Origin: Candidatus Limnocylindria bacterium | GTDB taxonomy: Bacteria > Chloroflexota > Limnocylindria > QHBO01 | DNA length: 64,000 bases | Assembly: GCA_038209995.1 (NCBI GenBank) | Contig: JBBQXD010000002.1 | Coordinates: 136,428 to 200,427, forward strand | Direction of reading: 5' to 3' | Shown here: piece by piece, positions 18,817 to 29,364 of the stretch | Layout: every line of letters begins with the position of its first letter | Numbering within the stretch: position 1 is the stretch's first letter | The notes under the pieces: generated by a model | Database searches by the model: none | Seen by the model: the letters and a program-made list of their open reading frames with translations, nothing else | Told to the model about the DNA's origin: nothing | Made by a program: the position numbers and the translations under genes

Positions 18817-19272
18817 ATGAATGGACGCCTGCTGCGCTCAAGGCGCGAACGGATGATCGGGGGCGTGGCCGGCGGCATCGGTCACCAGCTCGGTGTCGAC
18901 CCGACCTGGGTGCGCATCGCATGGGTCGTCCTCGCGATTGCCACCAACGGCGCCGCGATCCTGGTCTACCTGCTCCTCCTCTTCGTCATCCCCGAGGAGG
19001 GGACCGATGCAGCCGCGCCGACCGGGACCGGGACCGATGCCCGCGCGGACGTGCCGGTGGCAGGCAGGGGGCCGACGACGTCGCATCCGCAGCGCGGCTC
19101 ATTCGAAGCGGGGAACGGGGCCCTCATCGTCGGGGGGATCCTCGTCATCGTCGGGGCCTGGGCGCTCGCCTCCCAGTACGTTTCGAACATCCCGTGGGCG
19201 CGGATCTGGCCGATCGGCCTCCTCGTCGCGGGGCTGCTCATCGTGATCGCCTCCTTCACCCGCCGCCGCTGA
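18817..19272 (+). CDS. PspC-domain membrane protein
   Basis: 'RSRRERMIGGVAGGIGHQLGVDPTWVRIAWVVL' is the PspC N-terminal domain. C-terminal TM segments follow. Confidence 0.7.
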   Translation: MNGRLLRSRRERMIGGVAGGIGHQLGVDPTWVRIAWVVLAIATNGAAILVYLLLLFVIPEEGTDAAAPTGTGTDARADVPVAGRGPTTSHPQRGSFEAGNGALIVGGILVIVGAWALASQYVSNIPWARIWPIGLLVAGLLIVIASFTRRR

Positions 19273-22200
19273 GGCAGCGCGCCGCGCGCGCTGGATCTCC
19301 CACCGGTCGCGGCCGAGGAGCGCGAAGACCGCCGCGACGAACCCGACCGCGAGTCCCGCCACGAGCTTCGGCAGGTTGCCGCTGACGAGCTGCGTGCGAT
19401 CCCCGGAGGGAGGCGCCGGAAATTGGAATGCGTAGTTCCACGGCGGCAGGGCACGGGCGGCATTGATGTACCAGTCCGGCATCGCGAGCGCGGAGCCCAG
19501 CGGGAAGACGAGGATGCCGGCGACCGCCGCCAGGCTGAGGAACGCGACCCCGTACGGCCGCCAATCGGGCCGCACCAGGAGCTCGTCGACGGCGTAGGCG
19601 AGGGCCAACATTGCGAACAGCATGGCGGTGAAGTAGTGGTACATGAAGGTCGCGCGCTCGATCCGCGTCCACGGCAGGAACTGGAACGCGAAGGCGACGA
19701 CGACGAGCACGAGCGCCAGCGACCGCCGGCGCCAGGCCATGATCCCGGCGAAGACGAGGGCGGGGATGCCGGCCCAGAGGAGGATCGGGTTGCCGCCGTT
19801 GTAGATGGCGGCGGTGCTGCGGTCGTCGTAGCCGTGGCCGTAGAACCAGGTCGGCTTGAGGTCGAGCGGCCAGCTCCACCACGGTGAGCTCGAGGGGTGG
19901 CCGGCGGTCAGCCCGAAGTGGTAGCCGAACATCTGGGCGTGGAGCTCGTCGAGCGACCAGGCGTAGCCGGGCCCCACGTCGGGCGTCGCGATCGTGTGCC
20001 CCAGCGCCAGGTAGGGCACGTAGGTCAGGAAGTAGACGGTGAGCGGCAGGATGACGAGGCACGCCCCGATCCACGGCCAGGAGAAGCCGCCCAGCTCCTC
20101 CGGCGCCCACCAGCGGGCATCGTCGCGGGTGCGGAGCGACTTGACCGCGCGCGCGCCGACGAGCACGGCCGTCGCGCCGAGCATGATCCACGCCGGCCAT
20201 GCGGCCTGGGCGCCGCGGGAGAGGAACGCGAAGATCGTCTCGATCGCGTCCTTCGGCTGGCGGCCCGCCACCTGGCCGTATGCGAGCGCGAACGCCAGAC
20301 CGATGCCTCCCAGCACGAGCCCGGTGGCCGGCAGCGCCAGCAGCTCCTCGCCGCGCAGCCGGATCGGCCAGCGCCACACGATGAGGATGGCGATCGCGAA
20401 CGCGGCCGCGCACACGACGAGGACCGGCCACGGCGCGTCGATGCCCGCCACGATCAGCAGGAACCCGATCGCCCCCACCAGCAGCAGCCGTCCGAGCGGC
20501 GATCGCACGAGGACGAGGATGAGCAGCCCGGCGAGCGCGTAGAAGCCGACCCACTTGCTCGCTGCCGCCAGACCGATGAGGACCCCGGTGAGCGGCAGCG
20601 CCCACCACGCGCTGCCACGCCATCGGCCTGACCAGACCTGCCAGAAGAGCAGGTACGCGGCGATGATGAAGGTCGCCGTGAAGATGTCGTTCATCGCGAT
20701 CCGGCTCATGACGTAGCTCATGCCGTCGACCGCGACGAAGATTGCGGCGAGGACCGCGATCCGGCGGCGGCGGAACATCGTGGCCGCGAGCAGGTAGATG
20801 AGCCCGACCAGGATCGAGCCGAAGATGACGCCGGCCATCCGCCATGCCACCGCGTCGCCGCGCGTGTCGACGCTCACCAGCGCGCCCGCCGTTCCGCCCG
20901 CGGCCGGGGCGCTGACGACGAGGATCTGCGCGTTGTCGTCGCCGGTCCCGGTATCGACCGCGTCGACCGCGATCGCGAGCGACTCACCGGGGAGCGCCGT
21001 GCTGTCCCACGCCGCGAAGCCGGAGCGCAGCAGTCCCTGCCCGCCGGACTCGCCGTGCGGCTCCACCGCCCACACGACGGGCGCCCCGCCGTCATCGGTG
21101 ACGCCGGTGACGTAGATCATATTCACGACCGGCTCCCACGCGATCTGGCGCGGGGTGCCGGGGAGCGGCGTCGTGCCGATGAGCGTCAGCGTGTGCCCGT
21201 AGACGGCGATCCCGCCGCCCGTGGCCGGGAACGTGCCGGGATCGCCCGGCTGGGGGCCGACCGGCACCCAGACCTGCGCGTCGTTGCCGCTCCCCTGGAC
21301 GATGACCGGGCCGACGGGCGGCGCGCTGGCCTGGAGCGGCTCCTGGTTCTGCGCCGGCTCGAGGGTCGTCGCGTCCAGGACGTTCACCACCCCTCCGGCA
21401 GCGTCGGTGGAGAGGACGAGCGGCGCGGCCTGGTCAATCTTCGGGAGGTAGGCCAGGCCGCCACTGGCGAGCGTCGCAGTGGCGCTGATCACGGTGCCCG
21501 CCGGGTCGAGGCGCGCGATGCGGTCCGGCCCGCGGGCCAGGATCGCGGTCCCGTCGTCCGACACGACGATCTCGTTGACGCTCCCGAGGTCGGTCGCCCA
21601 CGCGACGCCGGCAGGCGGTGGCGCGCGGGGGCCGCTGCCGGGGAGGTAGGCGGCGAGGTCGTAGGCCTGCACCGTGCCGTCGTCGGCGCGGCCGGCGAGC
21701 AGGCGCTGCGCCGCGCCATCCCAGGCGAGCGACGCGATCGGGCCACCCGCGGACCATCGACTCAGCTCGCCGCCGTCGAGGGCATCGCGGCCGACGATCT
21801 GGCCGCTCTCGACGGTGAAGGCGACCGACCGCGGGTGCTGTTGGGAGTTGCGCGCCGGCGCCACCGCCAGCGCGCCACCGGCCGCGCCGAGCTCCGTCGT
21901 CGCGCGGACCTGGTTGGGATCCATGGCCACGATCCCCGCCGCGATGAGGTACTTGGCGAGCATCGGGTGCGTCCACTCGTACGTGTCCCGCGTCCACCCG
22001 TGCTCCCAGTCGGAGAGCCACTCCATGGCCGAGCGGGCGTGGTAGACCTCGTCGAAGTGGTAGCCCTGCGGCACGTCGAGGCGCCAGAGGCGGAAGAGGA
22101 GCCCGAGGCCGACGAGGCCCACGAGGAGGAGCGCGTCGAGCCGATCGAGCCGCCGGCCGCGCTCGCGGAACAGCGGGTCGTCCTCGCGCGACCGCTCCTC

Positions 22201-23949
22201 CACGGACGCCGGCTCGCGCGCGGGCACCCGGGGCACCGGCGGCATGACCATCGCGCCAGGCGAGACCCGCGGCCCATCCTCGGCGGCCCACGCCGGCTCG
22301 ACGGCCGGTGCCTCGCGCACCACGCGCCAGGCGAGCCAGCCGAACGCGACCACGACCACGATGCCCAGCAGGTAGAGCCCGGCATCGGTCCAGATGACGC
22401 CGTCGAAGAATGGCCCGAGGTCCATCGGTCCATCGCCGAAGCCGGGATTCATGGGTGGCAGGCCGGCGAACGTCCAGTCGGCGGTGTAGACCCACAGGAC
22501 GTTGGCGGTCAGCGACACGGTCACCAGGCCGTAGAGCGCCGCCCATCCGAAGCGCAGGAGGAGGGCCGCAGCTGCGATCGCCGCGAGGGGGAACAGGAGG
22601 AGGAACCAGGGGGGCCACGTCCCGTCGGACACGAGCTTGAACCCGGGGACCACGTCGAGGCCTATGGCGACGACTGCCGCCGCGCCGAACGCCATGAGCC
22701 TCCCCGACCGGCGCAGGCGCGGCACCGCCCGCAGGACGAGGGGCGCGGCCAGGCCGACCGCCGGGAAGAGGTACCGCTCGTGGACGCGCGTCGGCACCAC
22801 GAAGAAGGCGACCGCCACGAGGAGCGTGCCGATGACGAGCCCTTCCGGGTCGTCGTGGCGCCATACCTGCCACAGCGCGATCAGCGCCGCAACCGCAAAG
22901 AGCAGGGTGCCGAGGAGCTGCCACGAGACCCCGACGCCCGCGACCGCGATCGCGATCCCGGGGCCGCCACAGCCGAGGTCGGGCGCCACGGCCGGGACGT
23001 CGCAGCCCCACCGGAGGGTGTCGCCGAGGCCGCTCCAGGCATTTCGCCACAGGTTGATCGCGTTGATCGCCAGGCCCTCATAGGTCGTCGCCGCCTCGCC
23101 GAACTTGCCGATCAGGCTGGCGTTCGGATCGGACGAGGGTGACCACACCGACATGCCGAATGGGGCGAGGAGGAGGACGAGCGCGCCGATGCCGACCGCC
23201 ACCGATGTGAGCACCCGGAGCGGGTCGCGCCGCAGGTCCTGCCCTGGGTCGGCGGAGCGGCCGAGGAGGTGGCGCTTGATGCCGACGATCGCCACGATCG
23301 GGATCAGGAAGGCGTACTGGAACTTCACGAGCAGAGCGATCGTGGCGCCGAGCGCGGCGGCCTCGGTCCAGCCGGCCGCGAGCGCGTAGAGGGTGCCGAG
23401 GATGACGAGCGTGCCGACCGAGTCCACCTGGCCCCACACCGCGCTGTTGAAGACGGTGGCCGGGTTGAAGAGGTAGATCGCGGCCGCGACGAGGCCGACC
23501 GCCTCGCCCGACCAGCTCCGCCCTGCGAGCGTGAAGCGGCGGTCGAGGAAGCGCCGTCCGTAGGCGAAGAGCAGCCACGCGACGCCGGCGTCGGCCAGGA
23601 TGCCGGGGATCTTTATGAGGCCCGACGTCGCGTCCTGGCCCACGAGGGGAGCCAGGAGCTTGCCGATCAGGCCGAGGCCCCACAGGACGTAGAGGTAGCC
23701 GGGCGGATAATCACTGAAGTAGCCGGGTGCGTAGAATGCCCCGGGCCCGACACTCGCGAGTCGCTGTCCCCATGCGGAGAAATCGACGATGTCGATCCGG
23801 AACCCGCTCTTCGGCAGCAGGATGCCAGCGATGAGGGCACGCAGCAGCAGACCGATGAGGATGAGCACGCCGAGGAGCATGCCGGCGTCGAGGTGCAGGC
23901 CGTCAGCGAATGGCCTCGCGCCCCGCCGCCGCACGGGACGGGAGGTCAT
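19099..23949 (-). CDS. giant polytopic glycosyltransferase: N-terminal GT-C module fused to a PMT-like (GT39) protein O-mannosyltransferase module that carries a large periplasmic beta-propeller insertion and a PMT_4TMC C-terminus
   Basis: Single uninterrupted frame. Module A is polytopic with the acidic loop 'FRIDIVDF'. Module B starts with the PMT DE motif 'HFDEVYHARSAMEW'. It is followed by about 450 aa of repeat-like soluble sequence (WDGAAQRLLAG.., VVSDDGTAILARGPDRIARLDPAG.., IAVYGHTLTLIG.., VVWAVEPHG..). Then come multiple TMS (RMAGVIFGSILVGLIYLL...) and a C-terminal 'WTRIERATFMYHYFTAMLFAMLALAYAVDEL'. The start is ambiguous (ATG 23949 or 23880); the 3' tail overlaps convergent pspC by about 170 nt. 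Confidence 0.6.
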   Translation of the reverse strand: MTSRPVRRRGARPFADGLHLDAGMLLGVLILIGLLLRALIAGILLPKSGFRIDIVDFSAWGQRLASVGPGAFYAPGYFSDYPPGYLYVLWGLGLIGKLLAPLVGQDATSGLIKIPGILADAGVAWLLFAYGRRFLDRRFTLAGRSWSGEAVGLVAAAIYLFNPATVFNSAVWGQVDSVGTLVILGTLYALAAGWTEAAALGATIALLVKFQYAFLIPIVAIVGIKRHLLGRSADPGQDLRRDPLRVLTSVAVGIGALVLLLAPFGMSVWSPSSDPNASLIGKFGEAATTYEGLAINAINLWRNAWSGLGDTLRWGCDVPAVAPDLGCGGPGIAIAVAGVGVSWQLLGTLLFAVAALIALWQVWRHDDPEGLVIGTLLVAVAFFVVPTRVHERYLFPAVGLAAPLVLRAVPRLRRSGRLMAFGAAAVVAIGLDVVPGFKLVSDGTWPPWFLLLFPLAAIAAAALLLRFGWAALYGLVTVSLTANVLWVYTADWTFAGLPPMNPGFGDGPMDLGPFFDGVIWTDAGLYLLGIVVVVAFGWLAWRVVREAPAVEPAWAAEDGPRVSPGAMVMPPVPRVPAREPASVEERSREDDPLFRERGRRLDRLDALLLVGLVGLGLLFRLWRLDVPQGYHFDEVYHARSAMEWLSDWEHGWTRDTYEWTHPMLAKYLIAAGIVAMDPNQVRATTELGAAGGALAVAPARNSQQHPRSVAFTVESGQIVGRDALDGGELSRWSAGGPIASLAWDGAAQRLLAGRADDGTVQAYDLAAYLPGSGPRAPPPAGVAWATDLGSVNEIVVSDDGTAILARGPDRIARLDPAGTVISATATLASGGLAYLPKIDQAAPLVLSTDAAGGVVNVLDATTLEPAQNQEPLQASAPPVGPVIVQGSGNDAQVWVPVGPQPGDPGTFPATGGGIAVYGHTLTLIGTTPLPGTPRQIAWEPVVNMIYVTGVTDDGGAPVVWAVEPHGESGGQGLLRSGFAAWDSTALPGESLAIAVDAVDTGTGDDNAQILVVSAPAAGGTAGALVSVDTRGDAVAWRMAGVIFGSILVGLIYLLAATMFRRRRIAVLAAIFVAVDGMSYVMSRIAMNDIFTATFIIAAYLLFWQVWSGRWRGSAWWALPLTGVLIGLAAASKWVGFYALAGLLILVLVRSPLGRLLLVGAIGFLLIVAGIDAPWPVLVVCAAAFAIAILIVWRWPIRLRGEELLALPATGLVLGGIGLAFALAYGQVAGRQPKDAIETIFAFLSRGAQAAWPAWIMLGATAVLVGARAVKSLRTRDDARWWAPEELGGFSWPWIGACLVILPLTVYFLTYVPYLALGHTIATPDVGPGYAWSLDELHAQMFGYHFGLTAGHPSSSPWWSWPLDLKPTWFYGHGYDDRSTAAIYNGGNPILLWAGIPALVFAGIMAWRRRSLALVLVVVAFAFQFLPWTRIERATFMYHYFTAMLFAMLALAYAVDELLVRPDWRPYGVAFLSLAAVAGILVFPLGSALAMPDWYINAARALPPWNYAFQFPAPPSGDRTQLVSGNLPKLVAGLAVGFVAAVFALLGRDRWEIQRARRAASAAAGEGGDHDEQPRDEEADRPDPRPRDVRNVLGGERPGPDDDEDPPDDEGPVPRFE

Positions 23950-23964
23950 CGAAGGCGACGCCGG

Positions 23965-25650
23965 ATGCAGCGTCGCCGGGTCTGGCACGGCACGGCGGCG
24001 GTGAGTATACATCGACCCCCGGACGATCCCGATGGCCTCCCGGTTGCGTCGGGGGCCGCGGGCCGACCGCCCCGCCGTCTCCGCGCCGCGCATCCCACGA
24101 TCCCATATGTATCCGGCCCGGTCGCCTGGGCGGCGGCCTTCATCACGCTGGTGGCGTTCGGCATCTACCTCCGCACCCTGATGCCGGCGACCGGCTTCTG
24201 GGACACCGGCGAGGCGCAGACGGTGCCGCACACGCTCTCGATCTTCCACCCCACCGGCTTCCCGACCTATGCGCTCCTGGGATGGCTCTGGAGCCAGCTC
24301 CCGATCGGCGAGGTCGCATATCGCATGAACCTGCTGTCCGCCGTCTGCGTCGCGCTTGCCGCCGGCCTCACGGTGCTCATCACCGCCCACCTCCTGGAGG
24401 AGCGCAACCGCTGGGTCGCAGCGGTTGCCGGCGCAGTCGCGGGCGCCGCGTTCGCGTTCGCCAGCGAGGCCTGGGAGATCGCGCTGCGTGCCGACGTCCA
24501 CGCCGTCCACATCCTCATCGTCGCGCTCATCGTGTGGCTGCTCGTCACCTGGCGCGCCGCCGAACGCGCCGGGTCACCGCGGTGCGGGCGCTGGCTTGCC
24601 GCGGCGGCGCTCATGTTCGGGCTGGGGCTCGGGAACCATCCGCTCATCGGGCTGATGGCCTTCGCCATCGGCCCGTGGCTGTTCATCGTCGACCCCGGCA
24701 TCTGGCGCCGATGGCGACTGGTCGCCGCCTGTGCCGCGCTCCTGGTGCTGGGTCTGCTGGTCTACCTCTACATCCCGATTCGGGCCCATATCTCGCCCGA
24801 GCCTCCGCTCTTCTACGCCCACCCCAGGACGTGGGAGGGTTTCCGCTATCTCGTCTTCGCCGAGCAGTTCCACGGCCTCTTCGACCAGTTCGCCAGCCCC
24901 CTGCAGTACATCGATGCGAAGTGGGCGAAGGTGGAGAGCGTTCTCGCCGCCCAGCTCGTGGGACCCGGCTGGCTCGTCGTCGCGATGGGCGCCGCGAGCC
25001 TCGCGGTCCGTCGCCTCGGGGCGTTCGCGTTCCTCCTCCTGCTCATGGCCTCCAACATCTACTACGCCATGAACTTCCAGGACGGTGACATCGACCGCTA
25101 CTACCTCCTCAGCACGCTCGTCGCCTGCGTCCTCGTGGGCGTGGCGGTCGGGAGCCTCGCGGCGGCGGGCAGCCGCGCCATCGCCCAGGCGACTCGCCGC
25201 ACGCTCGACATCGCCGGCCGCCGCACGGTGGCGCGACTGGCGGGCGGGACGGTGCTCGTGCTCGGGGCGCTGCTGCCGGTCGTGGCGCTCACCACCCGGT
25301 ACGACGTGCGCGACCAGTCGCGGAACCACGAGGCCGACCTGTGGGTGGCGAGCGTCTATCGCGCGCTCCCCCAGGACGCGGTGATCATCAGCTGGTGGAG
25401 CTACAGCACGCCACTGTGGTACCACCGCTGGGTCCTCGGCGACCGGCCGGACATCACGATCATCGACGAGCGGAACATCCTCGACGACGGCTGGGGTACG
25501 ATCAATGCCGCCATTTACGCGTACCTGGGCCGGCGGCCGGTCTACCTGGTTCCGCCCGACTGGGAGGCGGCGAGGCTGCTGGCGGTCTTCCGCACGCGGC
25601 CCGTCGAGACGTACGGCGGCTACACGGAAATCGTCGAGGTGGTGCCCTGA
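23965..25650 (+). CDS. DUF2723/TMEM260-like GT-C family polytopic glycosyltransferase
   Basis: About 560 aa with 11 or more TMS and an N-terminal 'ATGFWDTGEAQTVPHTLSIFHPTGFPTYALLGW' block resembling the DUF2723 WDSGE motif. Large C-terminal soluble domain. Start ATG 23965 or GTG about 24001; only 15 bp from the divergent giant gene if both upstream-most starts are used. Confidence 0.55.
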   Translation: MQRRRVWHGTAAVSIHRPPDDPDGLPVASGAAGRPPRRLRAAHPTIPYVSGPVAWAAAFITLVAFGIYLRTLMPATGFWDTGEAQTVPHTLSIFHPTGFPTYALLGWLWSQLPIGEVAYRMNLLSAVCVALAAGLTVLITAHLLEERNRWVAAVAGAVAGAAFAFASEAWEIALRADVHAVHILIVALIVWLLVTWRAAERAGSPRCGRWLAAAALMFGLGLGNHPLIGLMAFAIGPWLFIVDPGIWRRWRLVAACAALLVLGLLVYLYIPIRAHISPEPPLFYAHPRTWEGFRYLVFAEQFHGLFDQFASPLQYIDAKWAKVESVLAAQLVGPGWLVVAMGAASLAVRRLGAFAFLLLLMASNIYYAMNFQDGDIDRYYLLSTLVACVLVGVAVGSLAAAGSRAIAQATRRTLDIAGRRTVARLAGGTVLVLGALLPVVALTTRYDVRDQSRNHEADLWVASVYRALPQDAVIISWWSYSTPLWYHRWVLGDRPDITIIDERNILDDGWGTINAAIYAYLGRRPVYLVPPDWEAARLLAVFRTRPVETYGGYTEIVEVVP

Positions 25651-26426
25651 ATCAAGAGCCCAGCGGAGAAGCGCGCGAGGCCGAACGTCCCCAGCTCACG
25701 TTCTTCTTCCCCGCCTTCAATGAGGAGGAGAACGTGGAGCGCACCGTCGAGCGGGCGCTGGCCGACATCGGTCCGCTCGTCGGCTCGATGGAGATCGTCA
25801 TCGTCGACGACGGCTCGACCGATCGCACGCCCAAGCTCGCTGACGCGCTGGCCGCCGCCCATCCGGAGGTGCGTGTCGTCCACCAGGAGAACCGCGGCTA
25901 CGGCGGCGCCTTGCGCACCGGCTTCGCCAATTCCCGAGGCCAGCTCATCTCGTTCTCCGACGGCGACCTCCAGTTCGACCTGACCGAGATGGGGCGCCTC
26001 CTCGCCCGCCTCGATGATCCGGCGAAGAAGCCGGTGGACGTCGTCATCGGCTACCGGATCAAGCGTCGCGACCCGGCGCATCGGATCTTCATTGCCAAGA
26101 CGTACAACGCAATCGTGTCGGTCCTCTTCGGCCTCCGAGTCCGCGACATCGACTGCGCGATGAAGCTTTTGCGCCGGGAGGTGTTCGACGGGCTGCGCCT
26201 GGATGCCGACTCGCCGTTCCTCTCCGCCGAGCTGCTCATCAAGCTCCGCGCGCGCGGCGAGCGGATCGCGCAGGTTGGGGTCAACCACTTTCCGCGGACC
26301 GCGGGGACGAACACCGGCGCCTCGTTCCGCAAGATCCTCCGCACGTTCCGGGACATTGGGAAGCTGCGCCTGGCGCTCTGGTTCCACCGGGGTGAGGTGC
26401 TCGGCCCCCGCCGGTCTCGCGGCTAG
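25647..26426 (+). CDS. GT2 polyprenol-phosphate mannose synthase (Ppm1/DPM1)-like; no canonical in-frame start codon near the conserved N-terminus
   Basis: 'LTFFFPAFNEEENVERTV', 'IVIVDDGSTDRT', 'SFSDGDLQFD' and 'IDCAMKLLRREV' are GT2 DPM1-like motifs. The only in-frame ATG/GTG/TTG upstream of the FFFPAFNEE block lies more than 300 nt inside the preceding gene; a CTG at 25647 is the nearest candidate. Confidence 0.55.
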   Translation: MNQEPSGEAREAERPQLTFFFPAFNEEENVERTVERALADIGPLVGSMEIVIVDDGSTDRTPKLADALAAAHPEVRVVHQENRGYGGALRTGFANSRGQLISFSDGDLQFDLTEMGRLLARLDDPAKKPVDVVIGYRIKRRDPAHRIFIAKTYNAIVSVLFGLRVRDIDCAMKLLRREVFDGLRLDADSPFLSAELLIKLRARGERIAQVGVNHFPRTAGTNTGASFRKILRTFRDIGKLRLALWFHRGEVLGPRRSRG

Positions 26427-27141: not shown

Positions 27142-29364
27142 CTACTCGAGGACGACGCGCACCACCCGGTCCGGGGTGGCGAGGAAGGCGACCGGTGGGC
27201 CGTCGGCGACCGAGGCCACCCGCAGGCCGATGACCTCGTCGAGTAGCCCAGCCTGCGCACCGCGGCGGGGTGCCATCCACTGGCCGACGAACGCGCCGTC
27301 CGCGCGTTGGAAGCCGATGATCCGCGCATTCGCCGCGTCGTAGACGAAGAAGAGCTCGCGCTCGCCAATGGTGGCCGCGTCAAAGAGGCGGTAGTCGAGC
27401 GCGTCGCGGACCTTGGCGTCCGGCGGCGGATCGAGGGAGAAATCGGTCTGCGGCAGCGGCGTGCCGAAGTTCACACGCGTCACCGTATTGCTCTGGAGGA
27501 GCCACAGGTTGGCGTCGACGAGGAGGTCGCGGGCGCGCTGCGGCGGGATGTCCGGCTCGGCGGTGAGGAAGGGTTGCGGGGCAGTCGGGAAGGTGACCGG
27601 GATGACCGCGGGCGGTGACCACTTGTCGATCGTGCCGCGCGCCGCATCCACGAGATACAGGTTGAAGATCTGGAGCGGCGGCCGGTGCTGGAGGGCGGCG
27701 AGCAGCCTGCTCTCGGGCGCCACCGCGTCGATGCCGGCGAGCGGCATGCGGTGCGGGGTCAGCTCGCTGAGGTCGATCCGCCACGCCTGCCGCGAGCGAT
27801 CCACCACCACGACGTCGGTGGCCGCGGTCGCGATGAGCCACGGGTCGCCCGCCACCCCGCCGCTGAGCTGCTGCCCGGCCCGGTAAACGACCGTCGCCGA
27901 CCCATCCGCGGGGTCGACGCGGATCACGCGACCGCGCCCGGCATCGGTGAGCCACAGCGCCCCATCGGAGGAGGCGACCATGCGGGATGCGCGCACGCCG
28001 TCGAGGGTGGCGCCGAGATCGGCGACGATCGCGATGTCACGGATCCGCGACACGCGGTAGAGCGCATCGAGGCCGGCATCGACACGCGCGCGGAGCGGCT
28101 CGAGCTCGCTGTCGGCCACGCCGGCGCCGGCGGCCAGCTCGACGGCGCGGAAGGCCTCGTCGAGCCGCGCCTTCGCCTGCTCCGGCGCGCGGGCGACGAG
28201 ATCGCGGCCGTCGACCTGGTCCTCGACCTGGGCGATCAGGTCGTGGGCGCTGGTGATCGCCGCGCGGGCCACCTGGGCGCGCGGGATCGCGTCGGTCGGC
28301 GTCGCCGACGGCAGCGAGCCGACCATGATCCCGGCCGCCGCGATGCCGGCCACCACGACCATCCACGCCAGGCCGAGGCGCCGCCGTCTACCCGACTCCC
28401 GCTCATCGGTCCGCGACACGGTGCGCGGGTACGCAGGCCGGCGTCGCGGCACGAAGGCGAGCAGGACGTTGACCAGTCGGAGGAGTCCGCGGCCGCCCGC
28501 GGCCTGGAGCGCGTCGATCCCCGATCCGGCGCGATGGAGGAGCCGCCCGATGGCATCGGCGAGAGGGACCGGGCTCTCGTCTGGCAGGCCGGCGAGGGGC
28601 TCGGCCGGTCGCACCGGCTCGAGCTGCCGCGTCGTGGTGGTGGCGCTGATCTCGTCCACCTCGAGGACGAGCAGGCCGTCCGACCCACTTCCCCCGCGGA
28701 TCGCGAACAGCTGCTGGAGGTGCTCGGCGGCGGCCGACGGGCGCATCGCATCGAGCGCGTGCTGCAGCTGGTCGATCCCCACCACATGGGCGAGGTTGCG
28801 GCTGACGAGCGCGATGCGGTCGTTGGCGGCCAGCTCACCCTGCCATGTGTACGGGTCGACCTGGAGCGCCTCGCCGAGGGTGCCTGCCACGCGCCGCTTC
28901 CGGACGCGCGGATCCTCGTCGGCGACCGCAGGCGGCGGAGGGAGCTCGTACATCCGACCGCCGCGCACGACGACCGCGCTCGCCGGCCCGAGCTTCGCCA
29001 CGTGGAGCTCGCGGCCCCGAATCGCCACCGCCACCACCCCGATTCCGCCGCGCTTTCCGATCCCGAATTGGCGCCGGTGGTGGTAGAGGCGCCGGTTCGC
29101 GGCCTCGATCGCCTTCGCGAGCGCGCCGAGCGCGCCGACCGACAGGTCGTAGTAATAGTCGCGCTCGATCTCGTCGAGCGCCTCGATGGCCGCGCGGCCG
29201 AGCGAGGCATCGGTCCCGCTCACCTGGGCGAGGAGGAAGAGCGACCCCTTGGTCCGCGCCCGCGCCCCAACCGTCGGCTCGTGGAAGCGGGCGATGTCGA
29301 GCGCCCCGGCAGCGCGTTCCTCGGCTGGGGGCAGACCGATACGAGTGGCGAGGCGAGAGGACAT
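27142..29364 (-). CDS. membrane protein with N-terminal PP2C-like domain carrying degenerate metal-binding motifs (pseudo-phosphatase?) and a large extracytoplasmic C-terminal domain
   Basis: PP2C-like topology blocks: 'IGVVAVAIRGRELHVAKLGPASAVVVRGG' (GDSR position reads GPAS) and 'NDRIALVSRNL' (SDGL position reads SRNL). A single TMS (LAWMVVVAGIAAAGIMVG) follows, then about 400 aa with beta-strand-rich repeats. Confidence 0.5.
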   Translation of the reverse strand: MSSRLATRIGLPPAEERAAGALDIARFHEPTVGARARTKGSLFLLAQVSGTDASLGRAAIEALDEIERDYYYDLSVGALGALAKAIEAANRRLYHHRRQFGIGKRGGIGVVAVAIRGRELHVAKLGPASAVVVRGGRMYELPPPPAVADEDPRVRKRRVAGTLGEALQVDPYTWQGELAANDRIALVSRNLAHVVGIDQLQHALDAMRPSAAAEHLQQLFAIRGGSGSDGLLVLEVDEISATTTTRQLEPVRPAEPLAGLPDESPVPLADAIGRLLHRAGSGIDALQAAGGRGLLRLVNVLLAFVPRRRPAYPRTVSRTDERESGRRRRLGLAWMVVVAGIAAAGIMVGSLPSATPTDAIPRAQVARAAITSAHDLIAQVEDQVDGRDLVARAPEQAKARLDEAFRAVELAAGAGVADSELEPLRARVDAGLDALYRVSRIRDIAIVADLGATLDGVRASRMVASSDGALWLTDAGRGRVIRVDPADGSATVVYRAGQQLSGGVAGDPWLIATAATDVVVVDRSRQAWRIDLSELTPHRMPLAGIDAVAPESRLLAALQHRPPLQIFNLYLVDAARGTIDKWSPPAVIPVTFPTAPQPFLTAEPDIPPQRARDLLVDANLWLLQSNTVTRVNFGTPLPQTDFSLDPPPDAKVRDALDYRLFDAATIGERELFFVYDAANARIIGFQRADGAFVGQWMAPRRGAQAGLLDEVIGLRVASVADGPPVAFLATPDRVVRVVLE

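Follow-up and report, generated by a model that had tools for sequence, protein, structure and literature searches.

Within a stretch of 64,000 nucleotides from a Candidatus Limnocylindria bacterium (contig JBBQXD010000002.1, positions 136,428 to 200,427, hereafter the window), a single frame on the minus strand (19099-23949) reads through two modules resembling GT-C glycosyltransferases and a beta-propeller, which raises the question of whether such a chain is a real gene and, if so, what its parts would accomplish together. The gene starts at the ATG at 23949 and encodes a protein of 1,616 amino acids (aa), followed by a TGA stop; all of its parts are given here in coordinates of the window and lie on the minus strand. 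It consists of an N-terminal GT-C module (module A), a linker and a protein-O-mannosyltransferase (PMT) module (module B), whose first outer loop houses the propeller. On balance, we read the gene as encoding a self-contained, single-chain protein O-glycosylation machine, most likely one for O-mannosylation, of the cytoplasmic membrane of Limnocylindria.

The existence of the gene has to be established first. The window has a G+C content of about 70%, at which long frames without a stop are to be expected by chance on either strand; antisense open reading frames (ORFs) of up to 793 aa overlap the region of the giant gene, and the open frame alone, which extends over 19099-24510, is therefore little proof. 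Better evidence comes from the G+C content at the third codon position, which keeps to a single phase, at 0.84-1.00, between about 24100 and about 19400; followed along the giant ORF, codon-position G+C does not change phase from one module to the next. The translation of 1,616 aa is 100% identical to a protein deposited at NCBI (P0001), and the start at ATG 23949 agrees with the conserved homolog N-terminus MT(R/S)xxVRRRGARP. A search of 5.8 billion proteins (E <= 1e-5) returned more than 1,500 matching database proteins; the best 120 matches are almost all 1,500-1,650 aa long and span the whole query with 50-83% identity, and most of them are labelled Chloroflexota or Candidatus Limnocylindria. 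When 119 full-length clusters were aligned, the modules, the insert and an extra C-terminal helix showed a column occupancy near 1.0, and three segments only were poorly conserved, namely the inter-module linker, an insertion of 55 aa at aa 414-468 and the acidic tail. Furthermore, the gene is present with the same architecture and synteny in 72 species-representative genomes, nearly all of which belong to Candidatus Limnocylindria.

Since the intact fusion is conserved in these 72 genomes and 119 clusters, a frameshift or assembly error is excluded and the uninterrupted fusion is a genuine gene, as the first-pass annotation of the window had read it from a single frame with two GT-C modules. 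The opposite explanation, that a GT87-like gene and a pmt gene were joined through chimeric assembly, a frameshift or an overlooked stop, drew on the evident origin of the sequence from a metagenome-assembled genome, on the frequency of long chance frames at this G+C content and on some related database proteins with about 1,000 aa, which resemble the products of separate genes for a PMT with a propeller. However, one phase of third-position G+C crosses the module junction, and the alignment of independent clusters, and of genomes from many studies, extends over the linker and the full length of both modules. At least some of the forms with about 1,000 aa are truncated calls, since P0122 and P0139 are marked as partial and P0128 shares its cluster with a protein of 1,798 aa, and the idea of stand-alone PMT-propeller proteins was therefore withdrawn; P0137 and P0158 were undercut as further examples, since both begin inside the first transmembrane (TM) helix of the PMT module. 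The artefact explanation is thus effectively refuted already.

Judged by its sequence, module B can be placed in the GT39/PMT family. Its N-terminal part (aa 601-676, 21922-22149), delimited by conservation, comprises TM1 (aa 603-622), the DE motif and the HPMLAK juxtamembrane helix (aa 661-676), of which H661, P662 and K666 are conserved. The catalytic Asp-Glu (DE) motif, which is defined as lying in outer loop 1 ahead of the first horizontal helix (PMC12331936), is present as HFDEVYH at aa 631-637 (nt 22039-22059), directly after TM1, and D633 and E634 are kept in 58/58 sequences; residue counts for this module refer to 58-87 divergent cluster representatives. The PMT core and the PMT_4TMC region follow at aa 1033-1492 (19474-20853), as delimited by Pfam and by alignment with yeast Pmt1. 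The Pfam model PMT (PF02366) matches with its profile positions 81-198 at aa 1032-1148 (59.3 bits; gathering threshold 22.7) and PMT_4TMC (PF16192) at aa 1335-1482 (69.9 bits; gathering threshold 32.4), where the stretch WTRIERATFMYHYF is located at aa 1427-1440. The alignment with yeast Pmt1 covers residues 136-248 and 539-690 of the latter, query residues 1035-1146 corresponding to Pmt1 136-248, and places R1037 (87/87) on R138, the Arg of TM2. The Arg/aromatic pair of loop EL5, R441/Y444 in the PMT of Mycobacterium tuberculosis (MtPMT), is represented by R1432 (87/87) and F1435 (81 of 87), and D1088, K1132, Y1437 and H1438 are conserved as well. In MtPMT, D74, D176, R441 and Y444 are needed (PMC12331936), and conserved residues of module B correspond to these four.

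The PMT fold is interrupted by a predicted seven-bladed beta-propeller at aa 677-1032 (20854-21921). The insert thus measures 356 aa, less than the roughly 450 aa that had been estimated at first, and is conserved across the 119 homologs. Like module A, it was modelled as an isolated domain; the AlphaFold2 model of the insert (pLDDT 92.6, pTM 0.92) is all-beta with about 27 strands, which form a closed toroid of four-stranded blades. With E <= 0.001, a Foldseek comparison gave 1,214 matches in the PDB, led by seven-bladed propellers with TM-scores of 0.58-0.65. The propellers matched include the WD40, YncE and YVTN kinds; RACK1, Tup1, Groucho, YncE, an archaeal YVTN protein and BamB are matched with TM-scores of 0.5-0.65 at about 12% identity. 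A scan of the query insert with Pfam and NCBIfam matched no propeller repeat family, and the insert of one distant relative gave a weak match to PQQ_2. The alignment to Pmt1 resumes at TM2, the N-terminal piece and the core abut within 5 residues or fewer in relatives lacking the insertion (as judged with hidden Markov models (HMMs) of the family's domains), and no hydrophobic stretch of TM grade was found by hydropathy in aa 627-1008; for these reasons the insert is a genuine insertion, which in outer loop 1 separates the second juxtamembrane helix from TM2. According to the topology of this loop, which was derived from the published work on MtPMT and PimE and from our own hydropathy analysis, the propeller must lie outside the membrane. 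A cytoplasmic propeller was rejected, as TM2 and the remainder of the PMT fold would then be inverted and as the segment is net acidic (17 Lys/Arg versus 41 Asp/Glu in aa 627-1008).

Module A (aa 1-546, 22312-23949) resembles GT87, ALG6 and PIG-type proteins of the GT-C class. Pfam recognises PIG-U, a match within the GT-C clan, at aa 110-257 (33.3 bits; cut-off 24.5) rather than GT87 (PF09594), which is matched by module A of the homologs P0091 and P0092 (31.5 and 29.0 bits; cut-off 25) and by Paenibacillus-type relatives (31.7-39.8 bits); a weak match to the Alg6_Alg8 profile covers aa 347-395. A profile of full proteins searched against solved structures matched the PMT part and nothing for module A, and a profile of module A by itself found no match at E <= 10, so that a comparison of folds was needed. 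The model of module A is a polytopic helical bundle (pLDDT 89) with the GT-C membrane fold, whose structural neighbours are ALG6 as the best match, ALG3, GPI-MT1, PimE and ArnT. Together with the PIG-U match, this bears out the assignment of the N-terminal module to GT-C. An assignment to the subclass GT-C_B was dropped, since the study of PimE places both ALG6 and PimE in GT-C_A (PMC12041525). The model helices and the positive-inside rule give about 14 TM helices in the query and about 12 in most homologs, with both termini of module A in the cytoplasm. The difference lies in a lineage-specific hairpin of two TM helices at aa 414-468 (22546-22710), which was recognised by occupancy and in the model; its columns have an occupancy of 0.18-0.20 among the 119 homologs, the closest relatives carrying the hairpin, and two long helices (414-441 and 449-467) are modelled. 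As an even number of helices is added, the topology of module A is kept.

Does module A look like an active enzyme? The motif FRIDIVDF (aa 50-57, 23779-23802) marks the beginning of the first juxtamembrane helix in outer loop 1 and contains the candidate catalytic residue D53, which opens the modelled helix 51-67 and is invariant in 72/72 close homologs and in 37/37 divergent ones, down to 24% identity. In PimE, the catalytic base D58 is located at the tip of the first juxtamembrane helix, JM1, and the catalytic Asp residues of ALG6, ArnT and PglB are placed likewise (PMC12041525); the position of D53 matches that of D58. A survey of 37 divergent representatives of module A (24-38% identity to the query) revealed R37, D53, Y73, D80, Y81, P83, K113, D120, P163, W172, Q174, D176, K209, Q211 and H390-E391-R392-Y393 as invariant or near-invariant, and no fewer than 34 of the 37 retain D53, Y73, D80, K113, D120, W172, Q174, D176, K209, Q211 and H390-Y393, most of which occur in all. 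The essential residues of PimE are D58, Y92, Q163, K195 and H322 (PMC12041525), and invariant counterparts of the last four occur in the same order as Y85 or Y87, Q174, K209 and H390. K209 and H390 (both 37/37) lie on predicted outer turns in the order of K195 and H322, an equivalence of order and not of residue-level structural alignment. H390 belongs to an invariant H-E-R-Y loop in PTRVHERYLFPA (aa 386-397, 22759-22794), in which H390, E391, R392 and Y393 are each found in 37/37 representatives and which, by analogy to H322/K195 of PimE, is likely the binding site for the lipid phosphate. Because this PimE-like set is retained, which we take as strong though indirect evidence of catalysis, module A is probably a second active enzyme. 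The motifs FRIDIVDF, HFDEVYH and WTRIERATFMYHYF, the acidic first-loop motif of module A, the completeness of the PMT module with its PMT_4TMC-type C-terminal region and the propeller in the first outer loop had all been proposed in the first-pass annotation, and each was found where it had been placed.

The two modules are joined by a linker at aa 547-600 (22150-22311), which is poorly conserved (0.27-0.29), contains nine Lys/Arg residues and is predicted to be cytoplasmic. As the C-terminus of module A is cytoplasmic, TM1 of the PMT module can start from the cytoplasm after this Lys/Arg-rich linker. At the other end, hydropathy and charge define an extension behind the PMT module (aa 1493-1616, 19102-19473), which consists of a short outer segment, an extra TM helix (aa 1524-1548, nt 19306-19380; occupancy 0.99) and an acidic, Pro-rich and poorly conserved tail (aa 1549-1616; conservation 0.36), presumably cytoplasmic; the extra helix should return this tail to the cytoplasm.

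A possible way in which these parts act together is offered by mycobacteria. A preprint of July 2026 predicted a Pmt complex, backed by pull-down, of Pmt (Rv1002c), the GT87-like protein Rv0051, the eight-bladed periplasmic propeller Rv3212 and the small, DivIVA-like protein Rv1209; Rv3212 was modelled directly above the active site of Pmt and likened to MIR domains, and Rv0051 (ML2687c) is said to lack catalytic residues, yet to be required for Pmt function (bioRxiv 10.64898/2026.07.15.738315). Moreover, the GT87 enzyme PimE extends the O-mannose on mycobacterial glycoproteins after Pmt has added the first residue (PMC12757957). In the giant protein, we propose that the GT2 enzyme encoded nearby would make a polyprenyl-phosphate-sugar at the cytoplasmic face of the membrane, that this donor would be flipped and that the PMT module would move the first sugar onto Ser/Thr residues of exported proteins. 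The propeller may sit over the active site of the PMT module and select or gate acceptors, as was proposed for the separate Rv3212/ML0810c and for the eukaryotic MIR domains. Module A may pack beside the PMT module as a tethered pseudo-heterodimer, similar to Pmt1-Pmt2 or Pmt-Rv0051, and might add a further sugar, as PimE does on mycobacterial O-mannose chains; this last role is suggested since residues of active-site type are conserved. We infer that the sugar is mannose and that the acceptor is Ser/Thr of proteins. An additional suggestion from the first-pass annotation, a processive enzyme, received no support.

Several points weigh against this proposal. The function of the family has been read from sequences and predicted structures. 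The GT2 enzyme matches hexose, Ara4N and GalNAc synthases about equally well and always below the cut-off, and the best structural match of module A is a glucosyltransferase, ALG6. The match of module B to NF058602, the NCBIfam equivalog for actinobacterial Pmt, does not reach the cut-off (44.9 versus 800 bits), so that module B counts as a member of the family rather than as a proven ortholog of actinobacterial Pmt. The mapping of residues onto PimE follows order, spacing and predicted sidedness, not a structural alignment; a propeller above the active site and modules packed side by side are drawn by analogy, the models being those of isolated domains. Likewise, the parts of the query are likened to Rv0051 and Rv3212 by description, not by sequence homology, and the propeller has seven blades, whereas Rv3212 has eight.

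Two other explanations accept the fusion and assign its parts differently. The mycobacterial GT87-like partner was reported to be non-catalytic, which keeps a scaffold role alive as an alternative (bioRxiv 10.64898/2026.07.15.738315): module A would then be a tethered, inactive partner, which stabilises the PMT module or recruits the acceptor, as proposed for Rv0051/ML2687c and yeast Pmt2, and the PMT module alone would transfer sugar. The only analogue studied, ML2687c/Rv0051, is without catalytic residues and yet needed by Pmt, and PIG-U, the Pfam match of module A, is itself a non-catalytic subunit with a GT-C fold. We nevertheless consider such a scaffold rather unlikely, as D53, Y73, W172, Q174, D176, K209 and H390-Y393 are invariant in 37/37 representatives at 24-38% identity, and an outward-facing polar set that parallels the catalytic and phosphate-binding residues of PimE would be unexpected in a pure scaffold. 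A non-protein acceptor is a further alternative, in which the substrate would be a lipoglycan, a cell-wall polysaccharide or a glycolipid and the propeller would bind the polymer in the manner of the carbohydrate-binding domains of EmbC and AftD, two GT-C enzymes of mycobacteria. It gains from the structural neighbours of module A, since ALG6, ALG3, GPI-MT1, PimE and ArnT all act on lipid-linked glycans, from the carbohydrate-binding domains (discoidin and CBM_4_9) that Firmicutes relatives have in the equivalent position, from an ABC-2 type transporter pair that is conserved downstream and from some homologs that also match PMT_2, the ArnT-like family. Against it, both Pfam models specific to PMTs recognise module B above their cut-offs, the DE motif is retained together with the Arg/aromatic pair of the peptide groove, and the separate propeller of the mycobacterial Pmt complex has been linked to phenotypes in protein mannosylation. 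To our knowledge, all characterised GT39 enzymes act on Ser/Thr of proteins, and we regard a non-protein acceptor as improbable.

The reading that we favour, a protein O-glycosylation machine in one chain, would be of interest for several reasons. The substrate choice of PMTs and their need for accessory proteins are an open question, and the first evidence that Pmt, GT87-like and propeller proteins belong together was a preprint of July 2026; a natural fusion maintained across a whole class of bacteria is independent, comparative evidence that GT39, GT87-like and propeller parts work together. It also shows that the accessory beta-domain is interchangeable between lineages, being a loop-1 propeller here, a discoidin domain in Firmicutes and a MIR domain in eukaryotes, and suggests that the GT87-like partner can be catalytically active. 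In addition, a one-gene construct for cryo-EM and for heterologous reconstitution becomes available, and the gene implies that the Limnocylindria, which are abundant and uncultured in soil and freshwater, glycosylate exported proteins. It is also conceivable, although we hold this with some doubt, that the Limnocylindria protein preserves a catalytic hetero-pair of a GT39 initiator and an active GT87-like extender with an acceptor-selecting propeller, of which the pseudo-enzyme Rv0051 and the free Rv3212 would be degenerate or fissioned versions. If true, this would provide independent "Rosetta-stone" support for the proposed Pmt holo-complex and a single-polypeptide model with 26 TM helices for PMT substrate choice and for the hand-over to elongation.

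The genomic neighbourhood of the giant gene is conserved as well. Synteny holds across the class (L001-L072) for a region of 20 kb (window 13400-34212), which reaches from dnaA past the ABC-2 transporter to tandem double-GNAT genes. In oriented order, it comprises dnaA, dnaN, recF, a gene for a 740-aa membrane protein, a BFN-domain gene, the GT2 gene, a TMEM260-like gene, the giant gene, a PspC-domain gene, the ABC-2 transporter and GNAT. The recF-dnaN-dnaA cluster is about 8 kb away, and the synteny with these genes places the giant gene near the replication origin. The GT2 and TMEM260-like genes are encoded on the strand opposite to the giant gene, and the PspC gene is convergent with it. 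The TMEM260-like GT-C gene (formerly DUF2723; 24001-25650, plus strand; Pfam PF11028, E 1.8e-31) has its most likely start at GTG 24001, which leaves 51 bp to the start of the giant gene; GTG 24001 is preferred because TM1 of the TMEM260-like protein must be included, and a relative of 83% identity (L073) has the same spacing of 51 bp and a call of 539 aa for this gene. As 51 bp hardly accommodate two promoters, the promoters of the divergent pair probably lie inside the neighbouring coding regions.

The GT2 gene (25416-26426, plus strand; Pfam Glycos_transf_2, E 5e-29, domain from about 25689) is of the polyprenyl-phosphate-sugar synthase type. It is adjacent to the giant gene and divergent from it in 54 loci, of which 37 also have the TMEM260-like GT-C. 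Its best NCBIfam matches are dolichyl-phosphate hexose transferase, ArnC, AglJ and PpgS, all far below the cut-off. Of the two neighbours proposed in the first-pass annotation, a second GT-C of the DUF2723 type and a polyprenol-phosphate-mannose synthase, the former stands, as does the general type of the latter, although its sugar may be another than mannose. The start of the GT2 gene can be read in three ways: at 25416 with an overlap of 235 nt with the end of the TMEM260-like gene, at a non-canonical start codon or behind a local frame error; no in-frame ATG, GTG or TTG was found in 25416-25734, yet the domain motif FFFPAFNEEE begins at about 25689. The GT2 gene call of the 83%-identical relative (230 aa) seems to begin after this motif. 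Towards recF, the 740-aa protein (27142-29364, minus strand), which lies between recF and the BFN gene and is kept in 49 loci, has a weakly PP2C-phosphatase-like N-terminus, one TM helix and weak C-terminal matches to the BamB/SGL propellers.

On the other side of the giant gene, the final 174 nt of its ORF (19099-19272) overlap the 3' end of the convergent PspC-domain gene (18817-19272, plus strand; Pfam E 6e-22). Codon-position G+C in this overlap tracks the frame of the PspC gene and not that of the giant ORF. Comparable overlaps occur in related loci (about 167 nt in L001 and about 95 nt in L002), and the gene caller left the PspC gene of the 83%-identical relative uncalled. With regard to distribution, contigs binned as Binatia, Zixibacteria, Steroidobacteraceae, Acidobacteriota and Pleomorphomonadaceae (L020, L021, L036, L050, L061, L062, L070) also carry the gene with the same neighbours; these contigs are probably mis-binned Limnocylindria DNA. 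A second clade of fusions of 1,640-1,730 aa, 35-40% identical, is found in Limnocylindria and Limnocylindrales (P0389-P0503; P0127-P0175), and rarer forms of 2,012-2,390 aa contain additional, unassigned sequence (P0156, P0157, P0175).

How new is this architecture? The first-pass annotation had not recognised it, which overstated its novelty, given the more than 1,500 relatives: GT87-GT39 fusions were known beforehand, as was the complex of Pmt, a GT87-like protein and a propeller (bioRxiv 10.64898/2026.07.15.738315). What is new is the insertion of a propeller into loop 1, the union of three kinds of part in one chain and a GT87-like module that appears to be active. The query shares with the mycobacterial complex a GT39 part with the DE motif, an adjacent GT-C of the GT87 type and an extracytoplasmic propeller near the first loop and the active site, and a polyprenyl-phosphate-sugar donor is implied in both. 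All three parts are present in cis in the query, where the covalent link alone brings them together physically, presumably for a common function. In contrast to the mycobacterial system, the query is one polypeptide with the propeller within outer loop 1, whereas Rv3212 is separately encoded, and module A keeps PimE-like residues, whereas Rv0051 is reported to be without catalytic residues. No DivIVA-like subunit comparable to Rv1209 was identified among the immediate neighbours of the giant gene, to which this comparison extended.

The closest relatives by architecture are the GT87-GT39 fusions of Paenibacillus, Bacillus, Clostridia and Nitrospirae (for example P0301, P0305 and P0315), which have a GT87-like N-terminal part and C-terminal PMT and PMT_4TMC regions; a GT39 enzyme of Paenibacillus fused to a GT87 enzyme has been described (bioRxiv 10.64898/2026.07.15.738315; UniProt V9WAU2 cited there). 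Module A is homologous to the GT87 half of these fusions (HMM E 1e-33 to 3e-37), its HMM matching the N-terminal half of proteins of about 1,000-1,300 aa, and a search seeded with P0236 led to proteins annotated as "glycosyltransferase family 39 protein" from Paenibacillus, Bacillus, Clostridia, Nitrospirae and Atribacteria. The fusions differ from the query in their length of 1,000-1,340 aa, in an uninterrupted PMT part, whose halves lie within 5 aa of each other, and in the lack of a propeller; Pfam recognises GT87, F5/8 type C (discoidin), PMT and PMT_4TMC in this order. In the Firmicutes-type fusions (P0301, P0315, P0294, P0236), the discoidin domain closely precedes the DE motif, and a CBM_4_9 domain is found at the N-terminus of some. 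The TM1 segment upstream of the DE motif of our family was unmatched in the Firmicutes-type representatives that were checked (P0234, P0236 and similar), and the topology of their junction may differ from that of the query.

Similarities also extend to the PMT dimers of eukaryotes (yeast Pmt1-Pmt2, PDB 6P25; the Pmt4 homodimer, 9I5K). The GT39 fold and motifs align, two GT-C bodies lie abreast, and a soluble, beta-rich, non-cytoplasmic domain is implicated in acceptor recognition. However, in eukaryotes this domain is a MIR beta-trefoil, which is carried by the loop that joins TM7 to TM8 and not, like the propeller, by loop 1, and the partner is a second GT39 enzyme on a separate chain, whereas that of the query is a GT87-like module. 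PimE (GT87; PDB 9DM5/9DM7), finally, is a polyprenyl-phosphate-mannose-dependent alpha-1,2-mannosyltransferase, which also elongates protein O-mannose in mycobacteria. Module A differs from it in an identity of only about 14-19% and in its Pfam match to PIG-U instead of GT87, and it is structurally nearer to ALG6, GPI-MT1 and ALG3.

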